Assembly: GCA_963668695.2 (NCBI GenBank)
Contig: CAXXLQ010000004.1
Span: 1,184,001-1,248,000, forward strand
Direction of reading: 5' to 3'
From: Vicinamibacteria bacterium
GTDB taxonomy: Bacteria > Acidobacteriota > Vicinamibacteria > Marinacidobacterales > Marinacidobacteraceae
DNA: 64,000 nucleotides
Positions within the stretch are counted from its first letter, which is position 1. The number at the start of each line of letters is the position of its first letter. The translations under genes were made by a program, and so were the position numbers. Shown here in pieces: positions 15,092 to 58,795 of the stretch. The notes under the pieces are model-generated. The model was not told the DNA's origin, did no database searches, and saw nothing but the letters and a program-made list of their open reading frames with translations.

Positions 15092-15390
15092 GGGAGCGCC
15101 GGTCTTCAGGCCCCCACCGGGAAAACTGGCCAGCATCGCGGCCGCAGGCCGCGAAACTCCCATCGCCAACCACGAAAAAGCGCGGGGACGGCTTGGAGCG
15201 CCGGTCTTCAGGCCCCCACCGGGAGAACTGGCCAGCATCGCGGCCACAGGCCGCGAAACTCCCATCGCCGACCGCGAAGAAGCGCGGGGACGGCTAGGAG
15301 CGCCGGTCTTCCGGCCCCCACCGGGAGAACTGGCCAGCATCGCGGCCACAGGCCGCGAAACTCCCATCGCCGACCGCGAAGAAGCGCCGG
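15092..15390 (+). repeat. Three tandem 102-bp REP-like units, each carrying the 19-nt insert
   Basis: GGAGCGCCGGTCTTCAGG[CCCCCACCGGGARAACTGG]CCAGCATCGCGGCCRCAGGCCGCGAAAC...; inserts at 15111, 15213 and 15315. Confidence 0.9.
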
Positions 15391-15490
15391 GCTAGTTTGC
15401 CCCGGTTTATCGGACCAGTAGGAACGGCCGAAACGCCGGTTCGCGCCGGCCCCGGGAGTTGTTCTTCGAAGTTCGCGGGGCTCTTGACGG

Positions 15491-16225
15491 TTAGCGCTTT
15501 CCCGGCACCATGGGGACGAAGGCGACTCCTCCGTGGTCCTGAATCTCGATCTCCCCGTCTGCGCCGCGGGTGGCGACCACGAGGCGCTGACTCCACGGAT
15601 CCGGCCCGACCGGCGCCACCAGCCGTCCCCCCGGGGCGAGCTGATCGAGGAGCGCCTGCGGGAGCTCCGGAGGCGCCGCGGTCACCACGATCCGGTCGAA
15701 AGGTGCGGCTTCCGGCCAGCCGAGGTAGCCGTCACCGACCCGGAGCTGGATGGACTCGTACCCGAGGTCGCGGAGGGTCGTTTCCGCCCGGGCGCCGATC
15801 CTCGGCAGCAACTCGATGGACCAGACCTCCGCTTCCAGTTCGGCGAGCACCGCCGCCTGGTAGCCGGAGCCGGTCCCGATCTCAAGGATCCGCGTCCCCG
15901 GGGTGATTTGCGCCAGCGAGCTCATCAGCGCCACGATGTAGGGCTGGGAGATCGTCTGCCCCTCGCCGATCGGGAGTGGGCGGTCGGAGTACGCCCGGCT
16001 TCGCTCCGACGCGGGGACGAACTCCTCCCGGGGCACCGTCTGCATGGCCCGCAGCACCGCCTCGTCGCGGATGCCGCGGCGTTCGATCTGGTTCCGCACC
16101 ATCAGCAGCCGTTCTGCCCGGAAGGCGTCCTCCTGTCCGCTGTTCCCGCTCGCTCCGTCGCTGCCGCAGGCGGCGGCGAGGAGGGTCAGGGCCGCAAGCG
16201 CAGCCGTTCGGACACTGCACCTCAT
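15491..16225 (-). CDS. pcm: Protein-L-isoaspartate O-methyltransferase with lipoprotein-type signal
   Basis: VPREEFV, GQTISQPYIVA, LEIGTGSGYQAA, GDGYLGWPEAAPFD; N-terminus LLAAAC. Confidence 0.92.
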   Translation of the reverse strand: MRCSVRTAALAALTLLAAACGSDGASGNSGQEDAFRAERLLMVRNQIERRGIRDEAVLRAMQTVPREEFVPASERSRAYSDRPLPIGEGQTISQPYIVALMSSLAQITPGTRILEIGTGSGYQAAVLAELEAEVWSIELLPRIGARAETTLRDLGYESIQLRVGDGYLGWPEAAPFDRIVVTAAPPELPQALLDQLAPGGRLVAPVGPDPWSQRLVVATRGADGEIEIQDHGGVAFVPMVPGKR

Positions 16226-16256
16226 AGAGATCCCTCCAGCTGCCGCCAAGTCTAAA

Positions 16257-16392
16257 CAACCTGTGGACAAAGCCACGCGGCCCAGTTCTCCCGGTGGGGG
16301 CTCCTCCCTCACGCGCCTTGTCAGCCGGGCGCCTCGCCCCCACCGGGAGGACTGGCCGCTCTCGGCGCTCACGTGGCTTTGCCCACCGGCTG
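16257..16392. mobile_element. MITE copy with internal deletion and two 19-nt inserts
   Basis: Ends CAACCTGTGG / CCACCGGCTG; body aligns to 44429-44607; inserts at 16282-16300 and 16337-16355. Confidence 0.75.
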
Positions 16393-16426
16393 TCACGTCC
16401 GTGGTGGTGCTCCAGGATGTGATGGA

Positions 16427-17227
16427 ATGACCGCCGTGGAACGGGTGCGAAGGGTTTCCTGGTGGGTGGTGCTCGTGGGGCTTGCGCTGCCCCTGTCCGC
16501 CGGGGCCCAGGGCTTCAGCCGGACCGAGTTTCAGTACCAGGGCGGATCGGCGTGGGTCGAGGGTCTGCTCAGTCCGCCGGGATTTCAGCACACCTTCACC
16601 CTGCAGCACGCGAGCGCCTGGAGTCACGGATCCAACTTCTTCTTCGTGGACCTGGTCTGCTGCGACGAGCCGGTTTCCAACCGGGACGCCTACCTGGAGT
16701 GGTATTCCTACCTGAGCCTTGGCGCGCTCAGCGGCAAGAAAATCTCCTTCGGGCCCATCAGTAATATCAATGTCACCGGAGGCATCAACTGGGGATCGCA
16801 GGCGCGCCTCGTCAAGTTGACCCCCGGAATCCAGTTCGCCCTCGATCTGCCCGGATTCGCTTTCGCGAACCTGGATTTCGTCTATCTCGTAGATTTGAGC
16901 GCGGGCCTCGAAGGCGGCGGGGTACCCAAGGCCGACGGGATCTTCGGAGTGGATTTCAACTGGGCGTATCCCTTCCAGATCGGTGAGGGCTCCTTCTCGG
17001 TAGAGGGGCACGGTGAATGGCAGAGTTCTGCGGGGAACGAAACCGGCGGGCGTCAGCCATACCAGATCCTCCTTCAGCCCCAGATCCGCTACGACATCGG
17101 AAAGGCCATGTGGGGCGCGGAAAACCGCGTCCTGGTCGGAACCGAGCTTCAGGTCTGGATCAACAAGTTCGCCGTCGACGGGGCGAACGAATTCCTGCCG
17201 CAGTTCGTCCTGGTCTTCGGGTTCTGA
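16427..17227 (+). CDS. Outer-membrane channel, Tsx/OmpK-like
   Basis: Signal peptide; TFTLQHASAWSHGSNFFFVD; LLQPQIRYDIG; WINKF; terminal F. Confidence 0.75.
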   Translation: MTAVERVRRVSWWVVLVGLALPLSAGAQGFSRTEFQYQGGSAWVEGLLSPPGFQHTFTLQHASAWSHGSNFFFVDLVCCDEPVSNRDAYLEWYSYLSLGALSGKKISFGPISNINVTGGINWGSQARLVKLTPGIQFALDLPGFAFANLDFVYLVDLSAGLEGGGVPKADGIFGVDFNWAYPFQIGEGSFSVEGHGEWQSSAGNETGGRQPYQILLQPQIRYDIGKAMWGAENRVLVGTELQVWINKFAVDGANEFLPQFVLVFGF

Positions 17228-18045
17228 GCATCAGGGACACGGGGACGTCCGTCCTCCTGCTTGCCCTGGCGTTCGGCGCCTGCGGGGATCCGTCCGGGTC
17301 CCCGTCCGGGCCCCCGTCCGGACCGCAGCCGCCGGGGACCGTCGGGATTCCGGCGGGCGGCGAAGTGGACGCTTTCTTTCTGGACCGCGAAGAGGTCACG
17401 ACCGCCCGCTTCGCCGCCTTCGTGACGGAGAGCGGCCACCAGACCGACGCGGAAGACTACGGCTGGTCGCTCGTCTTCCACGACCCCGGGACCGAGCCTG
17501 AAGGCGCGCGGGTGGTCGCCGCGACCCCCTGGTGGGTCATGGTGGAGCGCGCCGACTGGCGGCGGCCGCGCGGCCCCGAACACCCCCCCGCCGAGGACGA
17601 CCACCCGGCCACCCAGGTGAGCTGGAACGACGCGGCCGCCTTCTGCGCCGCGGCCGGCGGCCGCCTTCCCACCCGAGCCGAATGGGGGCACGCCGCCCGC
17701 GGGGGCCAGGCCGGGAGCCCATTCCCCTGGGGCGACCGGTCGCCGTTCGCCGGAGAGCCGCTCGCCAACCTCTGGGACGGCCTCTTTCCCATGCACCCGG
17801 GACCCGGGGACCGCTTTCCCGGGATCGCCCCGGTGGGGATGTTCCCGCCGAATCCCTACGGGCTCCTCGACATGGCGGGGAACGTGTGGGAGTGGGTGGA
17901 CGGCGGCGAGCCGGAATTCCGGCCGCTCCGGGGCGGGTCCTTCCTCTGCGCCGAGAACTCCTGCCAGGGGTATCGGATCGACTGGGAGAACCGGGCGTCC
18001 GACGATTCCGCCTGGAACCACACCGGCTTCCGCTGCGCGTTTTAG
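17224..18045 (+). CDS. Formylglycine-generating enzyme (SUMF1) family protein; start uncertain
   Basis: HPATQVSWNDAAAFC, RLPTRAEW, GLLDMAGNVWEW, RGGSFLCAENSC, HTGFRC; lipobox FGAC; no ATG found near the signal. Confidence 0.85.
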   Translation: MSIRDTGTSVLLLALAFGACGDPSGSPSGPPSGPQPPGTVGIPAGGEVDAFFLDREEVTTARFAAFVTESGHQTDAEDYGWSLVFHDPGTEPEGARVVAATPWWVMVERADWRRPRGPEHPPAEDDHPATQVSWNDAAAFCAAAGGRLPTRAEWGHAARGGQAGSPFPWGDRSPFAGEPLANLWDGLFPMHPGPGDRFPGIAPVGMFPPNPYGLLDMAGNVWEWVDGGEPEFRPLRGGSFLCAENSCQGYRIDWENRASDDSAWNHTGFRCAF

Positions 18046-18277
18046 CAGCCTGTGGTGGAACCCGGGTGAGCGCCGAGGCCGGCGAGGCGCCCGGTGGGGG
18101 CGAGGCGCCCGGCTGACAAGGCGCGTGAGGGAGGAGCCCCCACCGGGAGAACTGGCCCGAGTGTATTTCGACCGAAACGCAACGCAGAGCGCCGCAAAGC
18201 GGCAGTTCTCCCGGTGGGGGGCGGTTCAGCCGGGATGCATAGCTGGCCGGACGCCGCGCCATGTCGTCCACGGACTG
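18046..18277. mobile_element. Full-length MITE copy with two complete and one partial 19-nt insert
   Basis: Starts TTAG|CAGCCTGTGGTGGAACCC; colinear with the reverse complement of 44429-44607 except at 18090-18100, 18137-18155 and 18204-18220. Confidence 0.85.
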
Positions 18278-18310
18278 TTTGGGAGTCCTCCAGCGGTACA
18301 CTGCGCCGCC

Positions 18311-19114
18311 GTGCCGACTGTCGCTGGAGCCCTTCCCGAGCAGCAGGGGTTCGGTGTCACGCGCCGCCGTGACACGTGGTGGGTCGTCCCCGCGGCGACC
18401 TTCGCCGTGCTGTCCGGGTTCATCGTTTACTCGACCTGGGCCGCCTTCCAGAACGCTCATTACGACTTCGGGAACTACCTCTCGCCGATGTACTCGCCGG
18501 TGCTGTTCGGCGATTCCCACCACGCCTGGCTCGGAGGCAAGCCGAGCATCTGGCCGGCCTTCCTCCCCTGGTCTCCGGCGCTCCTGATCCTGTGGGCGCC
18601 GGCCGGTTTCCGGCTCACTTGCTACTACTACCGCGGGTCGTACTACAAGGCGTTTTGGGCCAGTCCCACGAACTGCACGGTCGGCAAGCCCTGGAAGACC
18701 TACCGCGGGGAAAACAGCCTGCCGCTGATCCTCCAAAACGTCCACCGCTACTTCCTCTACCTGGCGGTGGGATTCATCGGGATCCTCGCCTGGGACGCCT
18801 GGAAGGCGATGTGGTTCGCGGACTCAACCGGCGCCGAGCAGTTCGGAATCGGGGTCGGCACCCTGGTGCTCGCCACCAACGTGATCCTGCTCGGGGGGTA
18901 CACCTTCGGCTGCCACTCCTTCCGTCACCTGGTCGGCGGTTTCCTCGACCGGATCTCGGGAAAGCCGGCCCGGCTCTGCGCCTACGAGTGTTCGAGCTGG
19001 CTGAACCTGCGGCATATGAAGTTCGCCTGGTGCAGCCTCTTCTGGGTGGCGTTCTCCGACATCTATGTCCGGCTCTGCTCCATGGGCGTCTGGACTGATT
19101 TCAGGATTCTCTGA
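18311..19114 (+). CDS. Succinate dehydrogenase membrane anchor (Sdh1 / Rv0249c-type)
   Basis: SPMYSP, FRLTCYYYRGSYYKAFW, QNVHRY, YTFGCHSFRHLVGG; coupled to sdhA. Confidence 0.85.
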   Translation: MPTVAGALPEQQGFGVTRRRDTWWVVPAATFAVLSGFIVYSTWAAFQNAHYDFGNYLSPMYSPVLFGDSHHAWLGGKPSIWPAFLPWSPALLILWAPAGFRLTCYYYRGSYYKAFWASPTNCTVGKPWKTYRGENSLPLILQNVHRYFLYLAVGFIGILAWDAWKAMWFADSTGAEQFGIGVGTLVLATNVILLGGYTFGCHSFRHLVGGFLDRISGKPARLCAYECSSWLNLRHMKFAWCSLFWVAFSDIYVRLCSMGVWTDFRIL

Positions 19115-20937
19115 TGCAGGTAGCGGAACACGATGTCCTGGTCATCGGCGCCGGGGGCGCCGGACTCCGCGCGGCCATCGAGGCGTCGGCGACGGGCGCC
19201 AGCGTGGGCCTCGTCACCAAGTCGCTGCTCGGCAAGGCGCACACCGTGATGGCGGAGGGCGGGATCGCCGCCGCCCTCGGCAACGTGGACGGCCGCGACG
19301 ACTGGAAGACCCACTTCGCGGACACCATGCGGGGCGGCCAGTACGTCAACAACCCGACGATGGCCGAGCTCCACGCCCAGGAAGCGCCGGACCGGGTCCG
19401 GGAGCTGGAGGCCTGGGGGGCGGTGTTCGACCGCACGACCGACCAGAAAATCCTCCAGCGCAACTTCGGCGGCCACAAGTACCCGCGGCTCGCGCACGTC
19501 GGAGACCGGACCGGGCTGGAGATGATCCGCACCCTCCAGGACCACGGGATCCATCTCGGCATCGACGTCCACATGGAGTGGACGGTCACCGGGCTGATCA
19601 CCGATGGCGGCCGGGTGGTCGGCGCCTTCGGCTACGACCGCGAGAAGGGGCGCTTCCAGCTCTTCCGGGCGTCGGCGGTGGTGCTCGCCACCGGCGGGAT
19701 CGGGCGGGCGTTCCGGATCACCTCCAACAGTTGGGAATACACCGGTGACGGCCACGCGCTCGCCTACGAGGCCGGGGCCGAGTTGATCGACATGGAGTAC
19801 GTCCAGTTCCACCCGACCGGGATGGTCTGGCCGCCGAGCGTCCGGGGCATCCTGGTGACCGAGGGAGTGCGCGGCGAAGGCGGCGTCCTCCGGAACAGCG
19901 AGGGGCGCCGGTTCATGTTCGACGACATTCCGGACCCCTACAAGAACTCGACGGCGAGCGATCCGGAAGAGGGCTGGCGCTACACCCAGCGCGACAAGGA
20001 AGCGCGGCGGCCGCCTGAGCTGCTGACCCGCGACCACGTCGCCCGCTGCATCGTCCGGGAGATCCGGGAGGGCCGGGGCAGCCCGCACGGCGGGGTGTTC
20101 CTCGACATCTCCTGGATCAAGGAAAAGCTGAAGGACAGCGAAGCGCACATCCGGCGCAAGCTCCCGAGCATGTACCACCAGTTCAAGGAGTTGGCCGGGA
20201 TCGACATCACGAAGGAAGCGATGGAAGTCGGCCCCACCACCCACTACGTGATGGGCGGGGTCAAGGTGGACGGGGAGACCCAGATGTCCCGCGTCCCCGG
20301 CCTCTTCGCCGCCGGCGAGTGCGCGGGCGGCCTCCACGGGGCGAACCGGCTGGGCGGGAACTCGCTCTCCGACCTGCTGGTCTTCGGCAAGCGGGCCGGC
20401 GAGCAGGCGGCGGCGTTCGCGAGCGCGAATCCGCGGTCCGGCGCCGCCGGGGCCGAGGCCGAGCAGGTCGAAGCGGCCACCCGGGACGCCCTCGCCCCGC
20501 TTGAGCGGCAGGACGGCGGCGGCGGCGGGGTCGGTTCCTACGCCATCCAGAGCGAGCTCCAGGATCTCATGCAGACGAAAGTCGGCATCGTGCGCAACCA
20601 GGCGGAGCTGGAATCCGGGCTCGAGGGAGTGCTGGCGCTGAGAAAGCGAGCCGCAAACGTCAGCGCCTCCGGCAACCGCGCCTACAACCCCGGTTGGCAC
20701 ACCGCACTTGATCTGCCCAACCTGCTGCTCGTCTCCGAGGCGGTGGCGCGGGCCGCCGCGCTCCGGAAGGAGAGCCGCGGCGCCCACTTCCGCGAGGACC
20801 ACATCGGCAAGGACGAGCGCTGGGGGAACACCACCCTGGTGGTCCGGAAGGGCGCGGACGGCGGGATGGAAATCGTGGAAGAGCCGGTGACGCCGCCGCG
20901 GGAAGAGTTGCAGCAGATCATCGAGGAGAACCGCTGA
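19114..20937 (+). CDS. sdhA: Succinate dehydrogenase/fumarate reductase flavoprotein subunit
   Basis: GAGGAG, AHTVMAEGG, QFHPTG, HYVMGG, LHGANRLGGNSL, ESRGAHFR. Confidence 0.95.
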   Translation: MQVAEHDVLVIGAGGAGLRAAIEASATGASVGLVTKSLLGKAHTVMAEGGIAAALGNVDGRDDWKTHFADTMRGGQYVNNPTMAELHAQEAPDRVRELEAWGAVFDRTTDQKILQRNFGGHKYPRLAHVGDRTGLEMIRTLQDHGIHLGIDVHMEWTVTGLITDGGRVVGAFGYDREKGRFQLFRASAVVLATGGIGRAFRITSNSWEYTGDGHALAYEAGAELIDMEYVQFHPTGMVWPPSVRGILVTEGVRGEGGVLRNSEGRRFMFDDIPDPYKNSTASDPEEGWRYTQRDKEARRPPELLTRDHVARCIVREIREGRGSPHGGVFLDISWIKEKLKDSEAHIRRKLPSMYHQFKELAGIDITKEAMEVGPTTHYVMGGVKVDGETQMSRVPGLFAAGECAGGLHGANRLGGNSLSDLLVFGKRAGEQAAAFASANPRSGAAGAEAEQVEAATRDALAPLERQDGGGGGVGSYAIQSELQDLMQTKVGIVRNQAELESGLEGVLALRKRAANVSASGNRAYNPGWHTALDLPNLLLVSEAVARAAALRKESRGAHFREDHIGKDERWGNTTLVVRKGADGGMEIVEEPVTPPREELQQIIEENR

Positions 20938-21683: not shown

Positions 21684-21857
21684 TCCGCGCCCCTGCTGCC
21701 GGCCTGGGGCTTAACAGCCCCAGCCAGTCCGGCCCTCGGTGGTTGTTGCCGGGCGTCCGGCCCAGCCTTGGAAACCGGCGGGTTGCAATGACTTACGGCC
21801 TCCGACAAGATCCCGGGTCCGCTCCGGCCGCAACGGACCGGGGGAAAGGAATCACCC

Positions 21858-22229: not shown

Positions 22230-22672
22230 GGAGCGGCCTCCGCGGCCAGCAGCATGGTCAGGCAAGGGAACGCCGACCTCCGGGCGGCAGAGAAGGACCC
22301 CCAGTTCGGGGGTGTCCGTTTCTCGGCGAAATCCCGTGGTTCGGCATCATCCGGGGAGCTGCGTGGGGACGATTCGCTGCGCCTTGCGCAGCGGTGCCGG
22401 GTCCCACCGGTAGGACGGGCAAGGTCCGCGTTCCCGTGTCGACGGCGCCATCGGCACGGTTAGCGCCCTAGCGCGAACAGCACTTTCACAGGGCCGGGCG
22501 GTTCTACTCCGAAGCCTGAGCCTTCCGGAGCGCGGACGCGAAGCACAACCCAAAGACTGGTCTCCGCGTCGGGCGTCGCCCCCTGTTCGGGATTTGAATT
22601 TCCAGGCAGTCTCGAAAAGCATTGCCGTACCGCGCCGGGTTCCGTCAGGACCCGAGGGAGAAGAGACGCCTA

Positions 22673-23023: not shown

Positions 23024-23095
23024 GAACGCCGGCCAGTTCTTCCGGTGGGGCTTCACACCGGCATCGCCCGCCCGCCGGGCGGGCGAAACCCGCGC
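23024..23095 (+). repeat. REP-like unit with inverted insert
   Basis: GAACGCCGG[CCAGTTCTTCCGGTGGGG]CTTCACACCGGCATCG versus the empty allele GCGCCGGTGTTCACACCGGCATCG near 63311. Confidence 0.75.
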
Positions 23096-23112
23096 GTCGC
23101 TCGCTCGGGCGG

Positions 23113-26296: not shown

Positions 26297-26327
26297 CGCA
26301 CAGGCAGCGTAGTGCCTGGCCCGCGTC

Positions 26328-28391: not shown

Positions 28392-28547
28392 CCGGTCTCC
28401 GCGGGCTCGCATGCCGGCAGCCCGTAGGCAAAGTGACACGGCGTTCCCGAGCCAGAAGGGATGGGGGTCGGGTAGCCCCGCCCCCCGTCCCTTCCGCTCC
28501 GGGGTCTCCGCGGTGCTGGCGCCCCGCTCCGGAAACGAGCGGTGATT

Positions 28548-28712
28548 CATCCTGGCTGAACCGCTTCGCTCATCGTTGCGCGTCGGTCGAAATACACCAG
28601 GGCCAGTTCTCCCGGTGGGGGCTCCTCCCTCGCGCGCCTTGTCAGCCGGGCGCCTCGCCCCCACCGGGAGAACTGGCGCTCTCGGCGCTCGCGCCACTTT
28701 ACCCACGGACTG
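28548..28712. mobile_element. Partial MITE copy with two 19-nt inserts
   Basis: Aligns to 44470-44607; inserts at 28603-28621 and 28658-28676. Confidence 0.75.
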
Positions 28713-30126: not shown

Positions 30127-31322
30127 ACTTCCGTCGGAACGCCGCCAGTTCTCCCGGTGGGGGCCTCCGAACGGAATCGCCCGCTACCGGCGGGCGAAAC
30201 CGCGTACGGCTGTCCGCCCGCGGGGCGCCGCTTTCCACCGAGGCTCCCGCGGAGTTCAACCAGGAGCTCCGCGCCTACGAGCAGGTCGCGAAGTTCCAGC
30301 GCTACCGGCTCGCGGAGGGCGCCGAGGAGGAGTTTGACGAGGACTTTGTCCTGAATCCGTGCGATCTGTCGCTGCTCGGTTCGTCCCGGGCCGCTGACCG
30401 CGAGCGGTTCAACCGGGACCTCGGCGAATCACTGGAGGACACCGGCTTTGCGATCCTCGCCGGACACGGGGTGGACCCGGCGCTCTACGCGGAGGCCCAC
30501 CGCCGGACGCGGGAGTTCTTCGAAAGCCACGCGCTTGAGGAGAAGCTCCGCTACCGGGCGCGCCGGCAGGGTTCGGTGAACCAGGGTTACTTCCCGATGC
30601 GGGAAACCACCATGATCCACCCGGATCTCGTGGAGGGCTGGGTCTTCTGCCGCCGGGCCTTCGATCTGGGGGAGGACCCGGACTGGGACGAGGCGGCGTT
30701 TTGGCCCTCGCCGGGGTGGGAGCCCTTCTTCCGGCGGGTGGTCCAGGCCCACGAGCGGCTGATCCACCCGATCATGCGGTCCGTTCTCTCGTACCTCGGC
30801 GAGGATCCCGCGCTCTTCGACGAGCGGCTCACCGCTACCAACTTCGGCTTCCGGCTGAACTACTACCCGGCGATGACCGACGTTCCGGAGGGGACCACCG
30901 GCAGGATGCTCGGTCACGAAGACGTGGACCTCTTCACCATCCTCCCCGCCGCCGAGACCGAGGGCCTGCAGCTCCTCCACCGCAAGACCATGAAGTGGGT
31001 GCGGGTGGCCGCCCCGCCGGGCACCATCGTGCTGAACACCGGCGACTACATGCAGCGGATCACGAACAACCGGCTGCCGTCCACCACCCACCGGGTGAGC
31101 GCGCCCCGCGACCCCGCCGCGCGGTCGCAACCGCGAACCTCGTTCCCGATGGCGATCTACGTCTGGGAGGACGACCTCCTCGAAGTTCTCCCGAACCAGG
31201 GCGCCCCGCACTACCCCCCGGTCCGTGCCGAGGACTTCCACACCCGCATCACGAGCAAGTACTACGGCGACAGCTACCACACGACCGGCGAAGAGGGCGC
31301 CGTCTCCCGCCGGGTGCGCTAA
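30123..31322 (+). CDS. 2OG-Fe(II) oxygenase, isopenicillin N synthase family; start uncertain
   Basis: GFAILAGHGV, RLNYYP, HED (HxD), GLQL, STTHRV, RTS. Confidence 0.88.
   Translation: MNFRRNAASSPGGGLRTESPATGGRNRVRLSARGAPLSTEAPAEFNQELRAYEQVAKFQRYRLAEGAEEEFDEDFVLNPCDLSLLGSSRAADRERFNRDLGESLEDTGFAILAGHGVDPALYAEAHRRTREFFESHALEEKLRYRARRQGSVNQGYFPMRETTMIHPDLVEGWVFCRRAFDLGEDPDWDEAAFWPSPGWEPFFRRVVQAHERLIHPIMRSVLSYLGEDPALFDERLTATNFGFRLNYYPAMTDVPEGTTGRMLGHEDVDLFTILPAAETEGLQLLHRKTMKWVRVAAPPGTIVLNTGDYMQRITNNRLPSTTHRVSAPRDPAARSQPRTSFPMAIYVWEDDLLEVLPNQGAPHYPPVRAEDFHTRITSKYYGDSYHTTGEEGAVSRRVR
30136..30203 (+). repeat. REP-like unit with inverted 19-nt insert (30145-30163)
   Basis: GGAACGCCG[insert]CCTCCGAACGGAATCGCCCGC...GGCGGGCGAAAC, parallel to 23024-23095. 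Confidence 0.65.
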
Positions 31323-35844: not shown

Positions 35845-35931
35845 CAGCGAAGCGGCGTGGTTCGGGCGGGATGCATCGCCGGCCGAGCCCCCACCGGGAG
35901 AACTGGGCCGCGTGGGTTTTGCCACAGGCTG
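35845..35931. mobile_element. Internally deleted MITE copy with 19-nt insert (35888-35906)
   Basis: CTAG|CAG...GCCACAGGCTG|CTAA. Confidence 0.7.
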
Positions 35932-35965: not shown

Positions 35966-37135
35966 ATGCGGATACGCTCGATCTCGGCGGCGTCTCGCGG
36001 CGTTGTCGTCGTGGGAGCTTTGCGAACCATTCTGGTGCTCGCCATGGTGGCCGGCGCCAGCGGGATCGGGACCGGAGCCTCCACCGGGAGAACCGGCGAT
36101 CCGGCTTCCGGTGTGCACCGCCCGGACGCGGGGCCGGCGGCGCGGTTCATCCTCGTCGGAGACACCGGTACCGGCGATGCCCGCGCCCAAAGAATCGCGG
36201 CTGAGATCCGCCGCCGGGCTGAGGCGGTGGCCGTGTCCCACGTCTTTCTGCTGGGAGACAATGTGTATAAACACGGCGAGGCGCAGTGGATCGCCCCACG
36301 GTTTCTTGACGTGTACCGCGGGGTCTTTTCCCTCGGGGTGAGGATTCACGCAGCGCTTGGCAACCATGACGTGGAACACTGCCGGGACTCGGGGCGGAGG
36401 CCCGTTCCCCGGGATGAATCCGCCTACGAGCTGTCGCGCCGGTGCGAAGTCGATGCCCACCTGGCGACGCCCGAATTCGGCTATCGAGACCGCTTCCGCT
36501 ACTACTCGATCGAGATTCCGGGGTCCCAGCCAGATCGGCGCAGAGACGGGAGCGGGGATCAGGGCCGCCCGCGATCACCGCAACCGCTGGTCGAGGTGTT
36601 CGTGCTGGATTCCAATACGCTCGGAAAAACACAGACGAAGCTCGAGCACGGCTCGGATGAACCGCAACTCCGCTGGCTTGCCGAGGCGCTCGGTCGTTCC
36701 ACGGCACGGTGGAAGGTCATCGCGATGCACCACCCGGTGTACACACCCAAGCGATGCAAGTGGCTCCGATTCGGATGCCGCGGTGAGGACGGCGCGCTCA
36801 GTGCCGAGCTTGAGCCGATCTTCCGGGACTTCGGGGTGGATGTCGTCTTCCAGGGCCACCAGCACCTGTACGCGCGGCTCAAGCCACAGCGCGGCATCCG
36901 GTTCTTCGTGACGGGCGCCGGAGGAAAGAAGGCTGATTCCGCTCGGGACGACGAACGTACCGTGCCGCGTGAGGACCGGGGCGACTTCAACCACTTCGTG
37001 TACGTGCGCGCGACCGAGGATCGTTTCGGCTACTGCGTCATTGACGCGGAGGGGGATGTTCGGGATAGCGGAAGCTTCGCGCGTCGTGCCATCACCGATG
37101 AGGAACTCGAAGACGCCGCCTGTTCGGCGTCCTGA
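35966..37135 (+). CDS. Exported calcineurin-like metallophosphoesterase
   Basis: GDTG, LGDNVY, LGNHD, MHHP, GHQH motifs. Confidence 0.9.
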   Translation: MRIRSISAASRGVVVVGALRTILVLAMVAGASGIGTGASTGRTGDPASGVHRPDAGPAARFILVGDTGTGDARAQRIAAEIRRRAEAVAVSHVFLLGDNVYKHGEAQWIAPRFLDVYRGVFSLGVRIHAALGNHDVEHCRDSGRRPVPRDESAYELSRRCEVDAHLATPEFGYRDRFRYYSIEIPGSQPDRRRDGSGDQGRPRSPQPLVEVFVLDSNTLGKTQTKLEHGSDEPQLRWLAEALGRSTARWKVIAMHHPVYTPKRCKWLRFGCRGEDGALSAELEPIFRDFGVDVVFQGHQHLYARLKPQRGIRFFVTGAGGKKADSARDDERTVPREDRGDFNHFVYVRATEDRFGYCVIDAEGDVRDSGSFARRAITDEELEDAACSAS

Positions 37136-44428: not shown

Positions 44429-44607
44429 CAGCCTGTGGTGAAACCCACGCGGCGTTCGAGCGGCGATCCATCCCGCCTGAACCGCGCCGCTTTGCGGCGC
44501 TCGGCGTTGCGTTTCGGTCGAAATACACTCGGTATTCCTCCCTCACGCGCCTTGTCAGCCGGGCGCCTCACCGCTCTCGGCGCTCACCCGGGTTCCACCA
44601 CAGGCTG
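44429..44607. mobile_element. 179-bp MITE, empty reference copy
   Basis: TIRs CAGCCTGTGGTGAAACCC / GGGTTCCACCACAGGCTG (17/18 match) flanked by CTAA and CTAG; non-coding. Confidence 0.85.
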
Positions 44608-45888: not shown

Positions 45889-46293
45889 GCGAGCGTCAGC
45901 AACAGTTGCGAAAGGGGGATGGAGGTGAAGGTCCTCGCGCCGGGAGGCGCCCTCAGGCAGCCGCTGCACCGTTGCGGATCCACGCGAACCCGGTGTCATC
46001 AACGAAGGAAGCGAACCTCAGGTTCCGGGACGCGGACTCTGCGCCAAGCGCGGTCCGCTGTCAATGCCGGAATTCTACCGGCCGAAGGTGCTCGACCGGA
46101 CTCGGGCTTACTTCACTCCTTGGCCGCTTCGGCCCGCCGGTTTGCGATGAAGGAATCCACGCCGCCTGGCTCGCCGTCCCCGCGTTTCCGGGCAAGCAAC
46201 TGGGCTTCTGCGACGGCCGCCTCGAGGGGGTCTTCGGCGCTTGGACGTCCCGGGTTCGAGCGTTCTCCGTTTCGCCCGCCTCCGGCGTGCGGT

Positions 46294-46319
46294 GCCGGTC
46301 TGAAGACCGGCGGTCCCGG
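46294..46319 (-). repeat. REP-like palindrome (empty allele)
   Basis: TGCCGGTCTGAAGACCGGCGGTCCC. Confidence 0.75.
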
Positions 46320-49605: not shown

Positions 49606-49672
49606 CTGCTTGTCTCCTCGGGCGTTCCGCCGCCTTCCCAAGAGGCTACCGTGTCAAACGTAGAATTGCTCT

Positions 49673-52753: not shown

Positions 52754-52771
52754 GCGCCCCGCCGCCGGGGA

Positions 52772-55225
52772 TCAGAAGAACCTGAGCGAGTAGCTGATCC
52801 GGAAGCCGCGCCCCATCTGCGGGGCGAGATCCTTGATCAGTGACGTGTGATGGCGGTACTCGGCGTCGGTGATGTTGTAGGCCCGCAGCGAAATGTTCTG
52901 GGTGGTGTGCGTGCCAACGAACACGTAGGAGGCGGTGAAATCCAGCACCGCGTAGCCGTCGGTCGCTGTCTCGCCCTGATATAGCCGGTCCATCCGGGCG
53001 GCCCAGCGCACCCTGGGGGCGAGCCGCAACCGGCCGACCGGGATGTCCAGCCTCAACTGTCCGCCCAGCGGAGGGATGCGAGGCACGTACTCGTTCGTGC
53101 CGGTGAGTTTTGCGTCCACGTAGGAAGCGTTCGCCACCACTTCCGCCGCGCCGATGGATAAGTGCCCCTCGACTTCGAATCCCTGGTAGGTGGCGTCCGA
53201 CTGCAGGAATTCGAGGACCGGAAGCCCCCCTTCCTCCTCTCCCTGGGCGGTGCCGAAGATGAAATCGGAGATGTCGTAGCGGAACGCGCTGATGCTGCCA
53301 CTGAGCCGTTCCGAACTCTGGCGGAGGCTCAGGTCGAAGCCAAGGGACCGTTCCGGATCGAGGTTGGGGTTGCCGATTTCGAATGCCAGGTTTCCGACGT
53401 GCGGACCAAAGTTGTAGAGCTCCTCCAACGAGGGGCTGCGAGAGGAAAGGCTGGCGGTGCCGACCAGAGCGGTCGAGTCGCTCAACGAGAAACGGGCCCC
53501 GGCGCTCGCGGAGGCGCCCAGGAAGTTGCGGTCCACCACGTCCGGCAAGACCCGTTCTTCGTCGTGTCCCTCCTCTTCGTGTTCTTCTTGCTGCTCTTCC
53601 CCCTCTTGGTGCTCGGCCTCCTCCTCGCCGTGGGCGTGCTCCGCCGCCTCCGGACGTTCCCCGGCGTCGTAGGCGTTTCGTTCAACCCGCGCCCCAACCA
53701 GCAGGCTTAGCTGGTCCGACGCCCGGATCTCGTTGTAGGCGAAGGCCGCGAGCGCCTTCTGCTGGGTCGCCGGCGCCAGGGCCTCCTCACCCGTCGCCTC
53801 GTACTCCCGCAGATGGCCCCAGAGTCCGACCCGACTGGTCACCCGCCCGGATAGCTTCTTCAGTTCGGCGCGGAGCACGAGAGACCGGTTGTCGAAGTGG
53901 GTGGCCACCTCTTCCGGACCGCCCGCCGCCAGGCTCTCGATCTCGTCCTGATCGTAGTCGCTGTAGCGGACAGTGAACTCGGCCTCCTTGAATAGTGCGT
54001 CGAGCTCGCGAATTCCGAAGTCCGTCCGGAACTGCCGCCGGTTCATCGCGACGTCCACCGCGAGTTCTGCCTCGTCGTCGTGTTCCCCCTCTGCCTCCTC
54101 GTGGTGCTCCTCCCCTTCTTCTTCCGCCTCGTGCTGCCCCTCCTCCGCGGGCCCGTGCGCTCCCTGAAATGCGCCTGCGAACGGAACGCCGTAGCGGGAG
54201 TCGTCCAGCCGCGCGCTGCCGGAGAACCAGGTGCGGTCGCGGAACATTCCGAACCCCACTTCCCCCTGATGCATCGAAGCGGCGGAGTTCTCAACCACTC
54301 CCGCTGGAGAGGCGTAGTCGTTCGTGCGATTCGAGTTCCCGCCGCCCCATACGAACCAGCCGGTGCCGGCAGCCTGCGCGCGGACTCCGCCGCGGATGCC
54401 TTCATCCGCCGTCGAATAGTCGAGATTGGCCTGTCCCCGGAAGCCGGGCAGCGGGGAATGCGCCAGGTGGGAACCCATCGAGATGACGTTCACGGCGCCG
54501 CCGATGGCGTTCGACCCGTAGAGCAGGGTGGCCGGGCCGCGCACCACCTCGACCCGCTCGGCCTGGAGGGGATCCACCGGGACGCCGTGGTCGGCGGACT
54601 GGCTGCCCAGATCTCCCGTTCTGACGCCGTCTTCCATGATCAGGACGCGGTCGCCGTCGAAACCCCGCACCACCGGACGGGCCGAACCGGGCCCGAAGCT
54701 GCGTATCGCGACGCCCGGGGAACTCTCCAGCAGTTCCGCGAGCGTTCGGGCTGATTCGTTCTGAAGATCGAGCCCCTCCATCGCGTGTACCGAACCGAAG
54801 GTCTGGAACGGCGAGGAGCCGCTCGCCGATGCGGTCACGGTGACCCGTTCGTGCATCCGGTGGCGCGACTGGAGAAGGATGGGTTCGGCGATCTGGAACG
54901 CGACCTCCTCCAGCACGTCCACCACCACGGTGCGGACCGCGCTGAGGAAACCGAGATCCACATGGATTGTGAAGGCGCCGAGATGATCGACCTCCTCGAA
55001 CACGAAGTGGCCGTCCGCGTCCGTGTGGACCACCTGGTTCGTTTCGAGAAGAACCACCTCGGCGTCGTGCGCCGGTTCGCCGTTCTCAGCGACGAGGACG
55101 GTGCCGGAAATCCTCGGGTGCGCCCAGGCGGCGCTCGGGAAGGCCAACGCGCAGGCGAGGACGACAGCTCGCCGCACCGGCCGGTGAAGATGGAAGAAGA
55201 GGGGAAGGGAGAACTGCCGCAGCAT
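52772..55225 (-). CDS. ZnuD-like TonB-dependent receptor with His/Glu-rich loops
   Basis: ARPVVRG, SADH, RGPATLLYGSNAIGGAVN, PSLEELY..GPH...FEIGN; two H/E-rich insertions. Confidence 0.88.
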   Translation of the reverse strand: MLRQFSLPLFFHLHRPVRRAVVLACALAFPSAAWAHPRISGTVLVAENGEPAHDAEVVLLETNQVVHTDADGHFVFEEVDHLGAFTIHVDLGFLSAVRTVVVDVLEEVAFQIAEPILLQSRHRMHERVTVTASASGSSPFQTFGSVHAMEGLDLQNESARTLAELLESSPGVAIRSFGPGSARPVVRGFDGDRVLIMEDGVRTGDLGSQSADHGVPVDPLQAERVEVVRGPATLLYGSNAIGGAVNVISMGSHLAHSPLPGFRGQANLDYSTADEGIRGGVRAQAAGTGWFVWGGGNSNRTNDYASPAGVVENSAASMHQGEVGFGMFRDRTWFSGSARLDDSRYGVPFAGAFQGAHGPAEEGQHEAEEEGEEHHEEAEGEHDDEAELAVDVAMNRRQFRTDFGIRELDALFKEAEFTVRYSDYDQDEIESLAAGGPEEVATHFDNRSLVLRAELKKLSGRVTSRVGLWGHLREYEATGEEALAPATQQKALAAFAYNEIRASDQLSLLVGARVERNAYDAGERPEAAEHAHGEEEAEHQEGEEQQEEHEEEGHDEERVLPDVVDRNFLGASASAGARFSLSDSTALVGTASLSSRSPSLEELYNFGPHVGNLAFEIGNPNLDPERSLGFDLSLRQSSERLSGSISAFRYDISDFIFGTAQGEEEGGLPVLEFLQSDATYQGFEVEGHLSIGAAEVVANASYVDAKLTGTNEYVPRIPPLGGQLRLDIPVGRLRLAPRVRWAARMDRLYQGETATDGYAVLDFTASYVFVGTHTTQNISLRAYNITDAEYRHHTSLIKDLAPQMGRGFRISYSLRFF

Positions 55226-55236
55226 TGGTTGGACCT

Positions 55237-55332
55237 CCTGAACGCTTCTGGCGCGGGAGGAACCGGCCGTCCAAAGGCCCGCCGACGAGGGGGCCGGATG
55301 GTTCCTGGCTTGGAGTACGCCGGCCGTTCAGG
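55237..55332 (-). promoter_or_regulatory. Stem-loop joining the leader-peptide stop to the receptor RBS
   Basis: Inverted repeats 55237-55244/55325-55332 (8 bp) and 55258-55264/55300-55306 (7 bp), plus inner GGCCC/GGGCC. Confidence 0.6.
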
Positions 55333-55606
55333 CGGGTGGTGCGCGGGGAGCGCCGGGGGCCGCGGCAGGTGCGGCCGGGGCGAGCTGCGCGTCTTCGATG
55401 CGGAGTCCGGCCCTGCCGGGCGCGGCCGGGAGTTCCGGCCCGTCCTCGAAGACGGCAGTCTCCGCCCCGGCGACCTTGCAGATCCGGCACTGGGAATCGG
55501 TCTGGTCGGGATGCTCGTGGGCGACAGCCCCGAGCGGGGCCGCCAGGACAAGCGCGACCACGGTGGCCGCCACCAGGAATCTGGAGAATGGGCCGACGTG
55601 CTTCAC
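55328..55606 (-). CDS. DUF2946 / CruR-CutF-like leader peptide
   Basis: Signal-like N-terminus, HEH, CRIC (CxxC), C-terminal RAPP. Confidence 0.8.
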   Translation of the reverse strand: MKHVGPFSRFLVAATVVALVLAAPLGAVAHEHPDQTDSQCRICKVAGAETAVFEDGPELPAAPGRAGLRIEDAQLAPAAPAAAPGAPRAPPA

Positions 55607-55688
55607 CGCGAAGGAACCTGCGCTTTCTGATGCTAGCACCGGCGCCCGGGGTAGGGGGAAGGGGCTCTCCGAGGCCGGTTTCGGGCTG

Positions 55689-56306
55689 CTAGCGGGGGAT
55701 CAGTTCGATGACGATGTTTCGCAGCGGCGCGTCCCCGATGTTTTTCACGACGTGCACCACCGGCGGGTTGAACTTGATGGTGCCGGGGATCTGGGTCTTG
55801 AACACTTCATCCGTGCCGTCGGGCCACTGCTGGAGTTCGGTGGCCCCCATCACCAGCACCACCCGCTGGGCGTGCGAATGCCGCTCTCGCGTGTCCCCGG
55901 GTTCGAGCCGTTCCTCGAACACGAAATAGCCCTCGCTGTCGTAGAGCCGCTCGTTCTTGCCCGCGGCGATGGGCACCGCCGGCCCCTCGACCGCCGGATG
56001 GCCGGCCTTCAGGTTGACCTCGGCGAACTCGTGGCCGCGGATTTCGTAGGACTCGCCCGACTCGGCGACGAAGACCTCGGCGTAGTCGAGCCGGACCGGG
56101 GATCCGCCCGACGGGACGACGCTCAGCTCGCCGAACGCGACGATGATCCGGTTCCCGCATCCGGGGCCGGCGTTAGCGCAGGGCGCCGCGTTCCGGTGTA
56201 CGGCGGCGAAGGCGTTATCGAGGACCAGAGTCTCGTCCTCGGCGACGACGAAGGCTGCGAGGCCGGCCAGCGTGAAGGCGAGGGGGACGATTCGGAGACT
56301 GCGCAT
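55689..56306 (-). CDS. Exported cupin-like protein
   Basis: Signal peptide; HSH...H VVKNIG cupin motif. Confidence 0.65.
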   Translation of the reverse strand: MRSLRIVPLAFTLAGLAAFVVAEDETLVLDNAFAAVHRNAAPCANAGPGCGNRIIVAFGELSVVPSGGSPVRLDYAEVFVAESGESYEIRGHEFAEVNLKAGHPAVEGPAVPIAAGKNERLYDSEGYFVFEERLEPGDTRERHSHAQRVVLVMGATELQQWPDGTDEVFKTQIPGTIKFNPPVVHVVKNIGDAPLRNIVIELIPR

Positions 56307-56379
56307 GGCCGCAATCTAACAGGCCGTTCCGCGCCGGAGGCCGCCGCTACCATACGAGCCGGGAAATCGCTGGAGATCG

Positions 56380-58611
56380 TTGGGAGAGAAGGGTTTGCCG
56401 GGATGCACCGAGAGCTGCCGGAGGGCGGCGCTGTTCCTTTTGCTGGCGCTTTCGGGAATTCCGGTCGCGGCCCAGGATGGCGCCCAACCGACTCCCGAGC
56501 CGGAGGACGACCGCGACGCCTGGGGCGCCCCGGGCCTGCACCGCATCGCCCTCTACCCGACCCCGGACCTCGCTCCCGCCGGGGGAACCGCCTTCCTCCG
56601 TTGGGACCCGAGCCCGTTCGGAGTCTCGGTAACCCGCGACGGGAACCAGCGGTACCGCCTTGACCTTGAAATCGAAGGACTCCCCGAGCCCGGGTCCCTC
56701 GGCGACTACCGGACGTGGGTCGCCTGGGCGACCACTCCGGTCATGGATCCGGTGGTCCGGCTTGGGGAGGTCGGGAATGGAACCTTCCCGGCCCTCGGAC
56801 CGGTGGCGTTCGACAAGTTCGTGATCCTGGTGAGCGCCGAGCCCTCGGCCACGGTCGAGACCCGCACCGGCCGCCTCGCCCTCCGCGGGGCCTCCCCTTC
56901 CACCCGGATCCTTCCGGACAACCACCTCATGGTGCCGGTCAGCGGCAGCGGCGAGAGCGGGGCCGCGACGATGGATCACGGCGCGATGGACCATGCCGCG
57001 ATGGGACACGGCGCCGCTTCCGACGAACCGGCGTGGTCCCATCCTCCCATGCTCCCCGAGACCCCCATGATCCCGGGACTCGGACACCTGCGGCCGGAAC
57101 CCCTTCCCTTCCTGCCGCGGGTGGCGCCGGATGAATCGCTTCCCGACGCCGTCCCCTCCCAGATCGTGCGCCTCCGGGACGGCCAGACGCTCGACCTGCT
57201 CGCGGGCCGGGTACGCCGCCGCATCCACGGGCGCGACTACGTGATGTACGGGTTCAACGGGCAGTACCCGGGACCGCTCATCCACGTGGACCAGGACTCC
57301 ACGATCTTCGTCAACTTCGAGAACCAGACGTCGTGGCCCACCGCGATCCACTGGCACGGGGTGCGCCTCGACAACGCCTTCGACGGGGTACCCCACCTGA
57401 CCCAGGACCCGGTGCCCCCCGGCGGGCGCTTCGAGTACCGGATCTTCTTTCCGGATGCCGGCCTCTACTGGTACCACCCCCACCACCGCGAGGAAGTGCA
57501 GCAGGACCTCGGTCTCTACGGAAACATGCTGGTCGAGGCCCCGCCCGGCGAGTGGTACGCGCCGGTGCACCGGGAGGAGATCCTCATGCTCGACGATCTC
57601 CTGATCGCCGATGACGGGGGGCTTTTTCCCTGGGGGGTGGAGCGGGCCACCCATTCGCTGATGGGCCGCTTCGGCAACCTGTTGCTCGTGAACGGCGAGC
57701 CCGATTACGAACTGGATCTCGACCGGGGCGAAGTCGTCCGCTTCTTCCTCACGAACGTCTCGAATACGCGGACCTTCAACCTGTCCTTCGGCGAGCCCGG
57801 CACCCATCGGATCAAGGTGGTCGGGTCCGATCTCTCGAAGTTCGAGCGGGAGAGCTGGGTGGATTCGGTGACGCTGGCGCCCGCCGAGCGTTACATCGTG
57901 GAGGTCCGTTACGAGACGGCGGGCGGGCACGCTCTCGAGAACCGCGTGCGCCCGCTCGAGCACGCCTTCGGGAGCTACTTCTCACGGGTCACTCGACTGG
58001 GAATGGTTCGGGTCAGGGACCGGGGAGCGGACCCGGCCGTCGCCCCGGGCTACGACGAGCTACGGGAAAACGCTGCCGTCATCGAAGATGTGGACCGCTA
58101 CCGGAGCCATTTCGACCGAGTCCCCGACTACGAACTGTCGCTCACGATGGAGGTCGCGGGACTCGAACCCGCCATCATGCAGCGCATGCGCGCCGACCGG
58201 GTCTTCTTTCCGGCGGTCGAGTGGGCGGACACCATGCCGATGATGAACTCGGTCGCCACCCCCGAGGAGGTGCGCTGGATCGTGCGCGAGCCAGCGACCG
58301 GCCGTGAGGACATGGACATTGCCTGGCGTTTCCGGGTCGGTGACATCGTCACGATCCGCATCGAAAACGACGCCGGCGCCCTCCACGCCATGCAGCATCC
58401 CTTCCACATCCACGGCCAGCGGTTCCTGGTGGTCCGGCGGAACGGCACCCGGGTAACGAACCAGGTGTTCAAGGACACCGTCCTCATCCCGGCCGGGGAG
58501 ACGGTGGACCTCCTGCTCGAGATCACGAACCCCGGGAAGTGGATGGCGCACTGCCACATCGCCGAACACCTCGAAGCCGGCATGCGCTTCGTCTTCGAAG
58601 TGGATCCCTGA
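56380..58611 (+). CDS. Multicopper oxidase with N-terminal extension
   Basis: HWHG, WYHPH, HPFHIHG, HCHIAEHLEAGM; Met/His-rich linker. Confidence 0.92.
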   Translation: MGEKGLPGCTESCRRAALFLLLALSGIPVAAQDGAQPTPEPEDDRDAWGAPGLHRIALYPTPDLAPAGGTAFLRWDPSPFGVSVTRDGNQRYRLDLEIEGLPEPGSLGDYRTWVAWATTPVMDPVVRLGEVGNGTFPALGPVAFDKFVILVSAEPSATVETRTGRLALRGASPSTRILPDNHLMVPVSGSGESGAATMDHGAMDHAAMGHGAASDEPAWSHPPMLPETPMIPGLGHLRPEPLPFLPRVAPDESLPDAVPSQIVRLRDGQTLDLLAGRVRRRIHGRDYVMYGFNGQYPGPLIHVDQDSTIFVNFENQTSWPTAIHWHGVRLDNAFDGVPHLTQDPVPPGGRFEYRIFFPDAGLYWYHPHHREEVQQDLGLYGNMLVEAPPGEWYAPVHREEILMLDDLLIADDGGLFPWGVERATHSLMGRFGNLLLVNGEPDYELDLDRGEVVRFFLTNVSNTRTFNLSFGEPGTHRIKVVGSDLSKFERESWVDSVTLAPAERYIVEVRYETAGGHALENRVRPLEHAFGSYFSRVTRLGMVRVRDRGADPAVAPGYDELRENAAVIEDVDRYRSHFDRVPDYELSLTMEVAGLEPAIMQRMRADRVFFPAVEWADTMPMMNSVATPEEVRWIVREPATGREDMDIAWRFRVGDIVTIRIENDAGALHAMQHPFHIHGQRFLVVRRNGTRVTNQVFKDTVLIPAGETVDLLLEITNPGKWMAHCHIAEHLEAGMRFVFEVDP

Positions 58612-58754
58612 GCGGCTATCCGCCGCGAAGGCGCGCACTGCCGATCAGCGCGAAGCGCGGGGACGGCAGAGCGAAACGCGCGTTGCCGATCAGCGAAGGC
58701 CCGCTCAAAAGGGGAGCGCGCGCTGCCCACTCACGTAGAGCGCGCGCATGCAAT

Positions 58755-58795
58755 GGAACGCCGACCTCTGGCCAGTTCTCCCGGTGGGGGCTCCG
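58755..58795 (+). repeat. REP-like hairpin with inverted 19-nt insert (58772-58790)
   Basis: GGAACGCCGACCTCTGG[insert]C versus the empty GGAACGCCGACCTCCGGGCGGC near 22267. Confidence 0.65.

Follow-up and report, generated by a model that had tools for sequence, protein, structure and literature searches.

A 19-nt motif (M, CCCCCACCGGGAGAACTGG; its reverse complement is denoted rcM) recurs throughout the genome of a Vicinamibacteria bacterium (G000, assembly GCA_963668695.2) and was analysed from a 64,000-nt stretch of contig C4 (CAXXLQ010000004.1; C4:1184001-1248000). This stretch is called the window, and positions without a contig name refer to it. Allowing up to three mismatches, the window has 14 matches to M, of which 9 are exact, 3 differ at one base and 2 at two bases; 0.05 matches would be expected by chance, and none of 100 shuffled sequences reached 14. 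The sequence-only reading had listed 13 good copies, one partial and two degenerate ones, had assigned all good copies to two unrelated repeat families also present in empty form, and had described M as an insertion repeatedly written into other repeats. The 13 good copies were all recovered, one of them shifted by a base to 18202-18220, and the partial copy listed at 18090 amounts to 11 nt of rcM. As for the degenerate copies, the one at 22402 is a decayed M in a repeat context, whereas that at 36078 has two mismatches, lies in non-repeated and probably coding DNA and may be a chance match. These two aside, the copies in the window do fall into two unrelated families, F1, a MITE (miniature inverted-repeat transposable element), and F2, a repetitive extragenic palindrome (REP), and empty versions of both occur in the window as well.

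Seven window copies belong to F1 (16282, 16337, 18137, 18202, 28603, 28658 and 35888) and five to F2 (15111, 15213, 15315, 23033 and 30145), while the copy at 58772 has an F2-like context. Three tandem 102-nt F2 units (15093..15398, forward strand, repeat family D5) carry M within the hairpin of each unit (15111-15129, with one mismatch, 15213-15231 and 15315-15333). A short forward-strand F1 derivative at 16257..16392 consists of a terminal inverted repeat (TIR), rcM (16282-16300), a 36-nt spacer, M (16337-16355, with the change A14G) and a second TIR; rcM and M form a strong stem (z -4.1), and a single rcM connects the left flank of one insertion position, slot A, with the right flank of another, slot B (junction class L1-R1). 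This class has nine occurrences in the genome and corresponds to the product expected from recombination between two direct M copies of one element. The reversed F1 MITE at 18046..18277 (reverse strand) contains the rcM fragment (about 18090-18100), M in slot B (18137-18155) and rcM with one mismatch in slot E (18202-18220). In sequencing run X12, a contig on which only about 23 nt separate 18045 from 18287 represents a haplotype without this MITE; on a contig of run X5, the unique flanks of 16208-16416 are joined with about 65 nt in between. Both joins are cases of population-level presence or absence of whole MITEs.

Further along, a strongly decayed M-like stretch in F2 context (22402..22420, forward strand) is followed by a decayed M with two mismatches in an F2 hairpin (23033..23051, reverse strand). 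A 5'-truncated forward-strand F1 MITE (28540..28712), with rcM in slot B (28603-28621) and M in slot Cb (28658-28676), is missing at the orthologous site in three sister species (G001, G004 and G008). The remaining filled sites are an F2 REP with M at 30145..30163 (reverse strand), the orthologous site of which varies between species, an F1 end fragment (35845..35931, forward strand) with M in slot A (35888-35906), the TIR CCACAGGCTG and flanking CTAA, and M in the F2-like context at 58772..58790 (reverse strand). Among the empty forms, a complete 179-nt F1 MITE with CTAA/CTAG flanks (44429..44607, forward strand) has every slot empty and matches the empty consensus, and a partial F1 (61542..61648, forward strand) has an empty slot A (TCGAA-C-GCCGCG). 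Two empty F2 hairpins (63221-63255 and 63307-63339) lie at 63221..63339 on the forward strand, and further empty F2 copies at 3069-3101 and 46283-46317.

Genome-wide counts have to be read against the state of the assembly, which comprises 4,095,246 bases in 4 contigs (67% G+C). About 7% of it is redundant: contigs C1, of 144 kb, and C3, of 31 kb, duplicate stretches of C4, and these two contigs and both C4 ends duplicate other parts at 97.6-99.9% identity, the C4 ends overlapping each other over about 115 kb at about 99% (C4:9,354-123,253 and C4:3,775,642-3,897,227). This redundancy probably stems from strain haplotypes or from an unclosed circle. Because of it, whole-assembly counts of M are inflated by about 7%; a non-redundant part of 3.65 Mb was used for the counts of 1390 copies and 372 elements given below, and the redundant haplotypes served as a strain-level comparison. 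At up to two mismatches the whole assembly contains 1613 copies of M; 1123 of these are exact, 403 have one mismatch and 87 have two. The non-redundant part contains 1390 copies at up to one mismatch, 1019 of them exact, i.e. 381 per Mb. The positions of G-M-(C/G)C have close to the maximum information content, which drops sharply outside. Both strands are used equally in all 20 chromosome bins, and this lack of strand skew rules out a replication-oriented motif of the Chi or KOPS type. Unique flanks were seen in only 16 of 1612 copies and are mostly still REP-like. The sequence-only reading had proposed a search for a master copy of M, and none in a unique conserved context stood out among these 16, which are mostly degenerate REPs. 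Predicted genes contain 129 of 1548 M sites, and convergent spacers are somewhat enriched, a weak signal given the crude gene finder (1910 genes, 63% coding).

F1 is a 179-nt IS5-type MITE with TIRs CAGCCTGTGG/CCACAGGCTG and a 4-bp target site duplication (TSD; TTAA, CTAG, TTAG or CTAA), present as 372 TIR-to-TIR elements in non-redundant G000. Of the 372, 42 are flanked by TTAA/TTAA and 34 by CTAG/CTAG, and related YTAR words occur besides. Its length between 50 and 500 nt, its TIRs, its TSD of constant length and its presence or absence at orthologous sites are those of a MITE, and whole F1 elements with their 4-bp duplication were indeed seen as present or absent at orthologous sites of G000 and G001. 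Element lengths peak in the 170s, 190s, 210s, 230s and 250s, in steps of about 18 nt; 98 of the 372 elements have no M, and the M-free 179-nt form is a coherent palindromic MITE. As to the parental insertion sequence (IS), none of the seven DDE_Tnp_1 loci of G000 has the F1 TIR, and DDE_Tnp_4 was not found there. Among the 1390 copies of M, 752 map singly to F1, 375 adjoin another M and 27 are F1-like but non-collinear, which together make 83%; the remaining 236 lie elsewhere, mostly in F2. Arrays of 71-nt period built from an F1 end plus M were also seen in G000, along with 90-nt arrays.

F2 forms a stable hairpin (z -4.85) in high copy number. It lies on both sides of a gene for a Y1 transposase-like protein resembling REP-associated tyrosine transposases (RAYT) in G014, and upstream of that gene in G001. 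F2 is thus the true REP of a RAYT "REPtron". IS elements, including the only IS110 of G000, sit inside F2 hairpins. The latter (L039, C4:480,899-484,372), the sole IS110-family element of this genome, occupies an F2-like hairpin with two M-bearing REPs just upstream, and congeners carry up to 11 IS110 copies. A 2.2-kb IS with 24-nt TIRs and a weak DDE_Tnp_1 match is present in two copies of 99.7% identity (L165 and L166, C4:3,127,064-3,130,906 and C4:1,784,851-1,788,693), one of them directly beside rcM within an F2 hairpin.

Within F1, M is confined to discrete positions. The 752 singly mapped copies occupy nine positions, each in one orientation and with no scatter, and the left and right flanks of M form a few tightly coupled classes. 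In 317 parsed elements every interval able to hold M is bimodal: slot A measures 33 nt in 177 and 51 nt in 116 elements, slot E 35 nt in 195 and 53 nt in 39, and slot B 19 nt in 167 and 37 nt in 143. Slot C measures 15, 33-34, 51-52, 70 or 105 nt in 132, 94, 63, 16 and 1 elements, respectively, corresponding to zero to five tandem M. Over seven data sets, 54 flank clusters contained both the empty and the filled state, and the difference was nearly always +18 or +19 nt, a narrower net gain than the roughly 15-19 nt first proposed. The replacement of a few target bases stood up: 1-3 bases, mostly A/T, give way to G+M. Typically, A[AC]GC becomes A[G M]GC, A[ATA]C becomes A[G M C]C, and C[A]CC becomes C[G M]CC; in the same way G[AT]G turns into G[G M]G, C[TT]GT into C[G M]GT, and G[AA]CC into G[G M]CC. 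The junctions show this replacement and no duplication, and M has neither TIR nor TSD of its own, in agreement with the initial description; it behaves like a discrete piece inserted into two unrelated repeat families. Other genera and metagenomic relatives use further positions, some with M in the opposite orientation, and the number of founding insertions is estimated at about 20. Slot states occur in 27 combinations and are positively correlated, with odds ratios (OR) of 2.7-5.8 for significant pairs. Selection for balanced M/rcM pairs was rejected, as 25 of 220 elements have one M only and 11 have two rcM only. Insertion into unpaired loops was likewise rejected, three of six F1 slots being paired in the predicted fold.

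The best matches of a conserved protein belong to metagenome-assembled genomes labelled Vicinamibacteria or Acidobacteriota. The distribution of M among relatives was surveyed in 41 related species genomes. At up to one mismatch, M occurs in 21 of the 41, including all 15 congeners and four other genera of the family, and exact M is found in at least four genera of this one Vicinamibacteria family; for the two other families of the order, none of 16 genomes gave a match at the same threshold. A reversed-pattern control gave no match in any genome. Counts at this threshold reach 1526 in G000, 740 in G004, 710 in G001, 665 in G008, 255 in G018 and 58 in G019. Seven of 28 genomes of the family (G017, G020, G021, G022, G024, G041 and G042, all in genera g3, g6 and g7) are near background at three mismatches, G020 nevertheless having one exact M; g1, g2, g4 and g5 count as M-bearing genera, and g3, g7 and most of g6 as M-free. 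Outside genome assemblies, M was recovered from at least 120 metagenome contigs, runs labelled sponge metagenome contain related strains, and in contigs of four public runs from four studies the repeats are covered hundreds to thousands of times more deeply than their flanks (for example 283,137 versus about 121). Viral contigs gave no M hit. In G018, which belongs to another genus, parts of M are amplified separately, with CCCCG runs before M and tandem 13-nt CCGGGAGAACTGG units after it, a pattern that suggests slippage on the internal CCGG repeats.

Several possible origins of M within known sequence classes were rejected. A conserved single-copy look-alike, matching 16 of 19 bases in all genera, is a coincidence because it lies inside a conserved protein-coding gene. 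The 58 tRNA and tmRNA genes share no 9-mer or longer word with M and no Rfam family was found in the window, which speaks against an origin from tRNA or another structured RNA, and a scan for regularly spaced repeats gave satellite-type arrays only, leaving no link to CRISPR.

Most copies of M were multiplied along with their hosts. In a 360-kb syntenic region, 64 M sites are exclusive to G000, and at these places the three other genomes compared (G001, G004 and G008) lack the entire repeat or cannot be aligned over it. Amplification of the host repeats therefore accounts for most copies. Changes within a retained repeat were also observed, between species at 95% average nucleotide identity. 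A first comparison of G000 with G001, which are about 94-96% identical, yielded seven sites where M is precisely present or absent within the same MITE, against 38 site calls scored as shared (20 with G000 as the starting genome and 18 with G001). More such flips were found in the four-genome set of G000, G001, G004 and G008; at the window site 30145, for instance, G000 and G004 have G+M where the empty sites of G001 and G008 have AC. In these flips, private variants of the backbone are retained (e.g. GTCAGCCAAG), while variants close to the junction switch along with M (ATA versus G..C, CCAGC, and the M variant GAGACTGG). The junction variants are co-converted, and the flips therefore point to short-patch templated copying from other copies of the repeat. 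Haplotypes of 99% identity, compared over 257 kb with 89 M sites, show four partial differences and a single one of the full 19 nt; the latter is bounded by GGCC repeats and looks like a slippage deletion.

The direction of the change was assessed from the empty junctions. Empty sites of G type (14 of 74 in slot D) fit losses of M by slippage. The main empty junctions (AACGC, AATAC, CACC, GACC, CTTGT and GATGG) cannot be derived by slippage from the filled forms, and empty junctions of the A/T type are identical in divergent lineages poor in M, such as G020 with 12 F1 and 1 M and G010 with 95 F1 and 13 M. Because the empty junctions are not slippage products and are common to M-poor lineages, and because the M-free MITE is coherent, insertion is favoured over deletion, in line with the polarity first assumed. 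Outgroup polarity of the flips themselves covers about ten sites with a called empty state, and the informative four-genome patterns are too few. The statement that M is repeatedly written into other repeats is accordingly to be divided: M is a discrete insertion unit, but most copies are passengers, positions within the MITE in G000 are limited to nine fixed ones, and the flips look as if templated by donor copies.

The motif itself appears to be under some form of constraint. When copies were chosen by outer anchors only, sites within M bore private variants in 0.34% of cases, compared with 0.89% for flank sites (OR 0.38, p 3.5e-8), and common variants, found at none of the 19 sites of M, occurred at 4 of 27 and at 15 of 31 flank sites. 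The genomes G018, G019, G016, G023 and G020 have M unchanged while showing 2-3 base differences in a well-conserved 22-mer taken from the F1 backbone. Fewer private mutations than in the flanks, and invariance while the backbone diverges, indicate that something constrains M. A self-contained structure is not apparent: with three flanking bases, M folds no better than shuffled sequences (z -0.22). By folding, it destroys the F2 hairpin upon entry and pairs with rcM in long stems inside F1.

Candidate agents for the insertion were sought by profile searches. No match to Y1_Tnp or RVT_1 was found in G000, although absence from this 92% complete assembly is not proof; RVT_1 was also not found in G004, G008, G018 and G019. 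Across the family, Y1_Tnp occurs in 15, IS110 in 11 and RVT_1 in 4 of the 28 genomes, and none of the three tracks the abundance of M. The genomes G000, G004, G018 and G019, all of which bear many copies of M, gave no match to the RAYT-like protein of G001, and M lies near the Y1 gene in one of five loci examined. Addition templated by RNA, one of the mechanisms first proposed, gains no support since RVT_1 was not found in G000 and is present in only four family genomes. The proposal that M is the scar of an IS110 element failed too: IS110 ends score 7-8 against M, no closer than shuffled sequences (mean 6.4-6.7, maximum 10-11). Likewise, none of the three IS types checked carries M terminally, which speaks against M being an IS end.

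Our preferred reading, held tentatively and at just under an even chance, is that M is an optional cassette of 18-20 nt in intergenic repeats of one uncultured Vicinamibacteria family, whose presence flips by short-patch conversion. The more than 1000 copies arose mainly by amplification of the host repeats. Flips would be short-patch, template-directed copying, whether by ectopic gene conversion or by copy-choice switching of templates at structured repeats, and the roughly 20 founding entries may have been rare events of the same templated-copying kind, aided by micro-homologies between donor and target (GA-AC-GCCG and N-A-CCGG). The invariance of M might be due to a conserved trans-acting factor that reads it, for which a protein-binding site is the best guess, or to conversion favouring M. 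A number of observations weigh against this reading. Template switching or illegitimate conversion predicts ragged ends, and the edges of M vary by only 1-2 nt across about 20 positions and both orientations. The homology beside the slots, especially in F2, is short for conversion of the RecA type. Three slots in one MITE differ between sister species while the backbone is kept, which needs very short or repeated patches. The replaced bases nearly always contain A/T (AC, AT, AA, TT, A or ATA), which is not predicted. The slots are not consistently unpaired, three of six being paired in the predicted fold; the factor reading M is a conjecture, and the lower variation of M could mean that its copies are younger than the flanks. 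In short, the constant edges, the +18/+19 rule, the A/T replacement and the invariance of M are left unaccounted for by ordinary processes.

An alternative is that a dedicated enzyme with a fixed template (RNA, an oligonucleotide or a master DNA copy), or a transposase acting in trans and recognising M, writes G+M into structured repeats in place of 1-3 bases, and amplification of MITEs and REPs then multiplies the product. Constant edges and a gain of +18/+19 nt speak for it, seen as they are in either orientation at some 20 unrelated positions, across four genera and metagenomic relatives. So do the regular replacement of A/T-containing bases, an M invariant over slots and genera, several slots of one MITE filled with the backbone untouched, and the positive correlation of slot states within elements. 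We nevertheless regard it as unlikely. No RVT_1 or Y1_Tnp was found in G000, the RAYT-like protein of G001 is not found in the M-rich G000, G004, G018 and G019, M is unlike the ends of three IS types, and viral contigs gave no hits. The 1390 copies include no scattered single new positions and M is almost absent from unique DNA. The flips carry donor-type flanking and M variants, and among 89 sites compared between nearly identical haplotypes the sole full-length change looks like a slippage deletion.

Less probable still is the possibility that M is a family-specific recognition tag, such as an uptake signal, a mark of 'self' or a nucleoid or regulatory site, that has spread by its function, through biased uptake or through selection, the repeats being mere vehicles. 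About 381 copies per Mb in equal orientations without strand skew would suit a tag, as would exact conservation within one family with no match in 16 genomes of the two others, fewer private mutations than in the flanks, and the frequent arrangement of M in inverted pairs. Yet, unlike known uptake sequences, M keeps almost entirely to repeats and is seldom seen in genes or unique DNA; 98 of 372 MITEs lack it, and it ruins the REP hairpin that it enters. A reversed polarity, with ancestral repeats filled in all slots and the empty forms produced by site-specific or slippage deletion, is very improbable: the GGCC-bounded 19-nt loss between near-identical haplotypes and the G-type empty sites of slot D agree with it, and a single event per slot followed by conversion is compatible with either direction, but the main empty junctions are not slippage products and are the same in divergent M-poor lineages, G020 and G010 have many F1 and few M, the M-free 179-nt element is a coherent palindromic MITE, and the filled slots differ between genera. 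That M is a library or adapter oligonucleotide or an assembly error can be dismissed, as its recurrence in 21 of 41 species genomes, in at least 120 metagenome contigs and at very high depth in four runs from four studies, its point variants and decayed copies and its embedding at orthologous loci of sister species all speak against it, and nothing was found in support, the approximately 7% redundancy of the assembly being the sole caveat.

Comparison with described systems brings out both likenesses and differences. As reported by Di Nocera et al. 2013 (PMC3733652), REPs tagged with GTAG/CGTC sit inside other palindromes, with hundreds of unoccupied targets in Thermomicrobium roseum. Such REPs, as described there, resemble M in being short, high-copy intergenic units nested in palindromic repeats, with a RAYT link that here concerns F2. 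M differs from them in that it is no palindrome (z -0.2), has no GTAG/CGTC tag on either strand and destroys the hairpin it enters, and it occupies nine positions of an unrelated DDE-type MITE and is abundant where no RAYT was found. M is no more a MITE in its own right, since it has no inverted ends and its junctions no duplication. The BOX elements of Streptococcus pneumoniae have the structure boxA-boxB(n)-boxC, with an array of boxB between boxA and boxC (Croucher et al. 2011, PMC3049150). To that extent BOX and F1 are alike, both being MITE-like composites with TIR and TSD and with a short internal module that is absent or tandem-variable between strains. In slot C the zero to five tandem M recall such an array, yet M (18-19 nt) is also seen at eight further positions of F1 and in a second family of repeats, in both orientations and invariant across genera, unlike boxB as described in that source.

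The bacterial interspersed mosaic elements (BIME) of E. coli and the neisserial intergenic mosaic elements (NIME; dRS3/RS) are intergenic mosaics of short motifs and variable modules, and some are targets of IS110-type elements; REP evolution by gene conversion is a long-standing proposal (Higgins 1988). In those mosaics the motif borders or alternates with the modules, whereas M is nested in complete elements as a cassette that is present or absent and replaces target bases; the tight coupling of its left and right flanks indicates that no shuffling takes place at M. DNA uptake sequences (DUS) of Neisseria and uptake signal sequences (USS) of Pasteurellaceae are family-specific, abundant, nearly invariant, present in both orientations and often arranged in inverted pairs. 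M shares the abundance, the neutrality to strand, the family specificity and the frequent inverted pairs, but it is twice as long, is nearly absent from genes and unique DNA (unique flanks in only 16 of 1612 copies) and spreads within mobile repeats. M thus differs from nested REPs, boxB modules and BIME/NIME mosaics, its closest known cases. Full-text searches of the literature gave no account of this motif or of Vicinamibacteria repeats.

The mosaic nature of REPs and BIMEs, BOX, NIMEs and MITEs is known; how their modules are gained largely is not. The present case is unusually clean, combining an invariant 19-mer, hundreds of empty and filled examples per position and sister genomes that differ at orthologous sites, and it makes the origin of repeat mosaicism testable, with short-patch conversion or template switching on one side and a dedicated inserter on the other. 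It also draws attention to a sequence that is probably read by a conserved factor in this little-known uncultured lineage. It is rather unlikely that M is both the product of a dedicated, undescribed sequence-writing activity and the recognition site of a conserved factor. On that view a fixed unit of 20 nt (G+M) would take the place of 1-3 A/T-containing bases in structured repeats. M would in that case be the smallest discrete 'mobile' unit known in bacterial DNA, and one that works without TIR, TSD, hairpin or a recognisable gene for a transposase, reverse transcriptase or HUH enzyme in the most M-rich genome. A dedicated mechanism would represent a new kind of templated DNA insertion; should there be none, M would provide a natural model of ectopic short-tract conversion among dispersed repeats.

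G000 is unusually rich in tandem repeats, including satellite arrays at C4:574,339-575,902 (period of about 64 nt, about 25 units) and C4:122,152-123,263 (53-nt period). The window has repeats of its own besides those hosting M. A gene block at 6257-11146 consists of three diverged tandem paralogues with 69-84% identity over repeat families of 86-300 nt (D1, D3, D4, D7 and D15), and a tandem 19-nt unit (CCGTGAAACCGATGTCGCG-like, at least eight copies), unrelated to M, lies between paralogous genes at 8097-8315. A perfect 50-nt direct repeat (3264-3313 and 3450-3499, 186 nt apart) overlaps a start region (…GGAGGTGACTCATG…).

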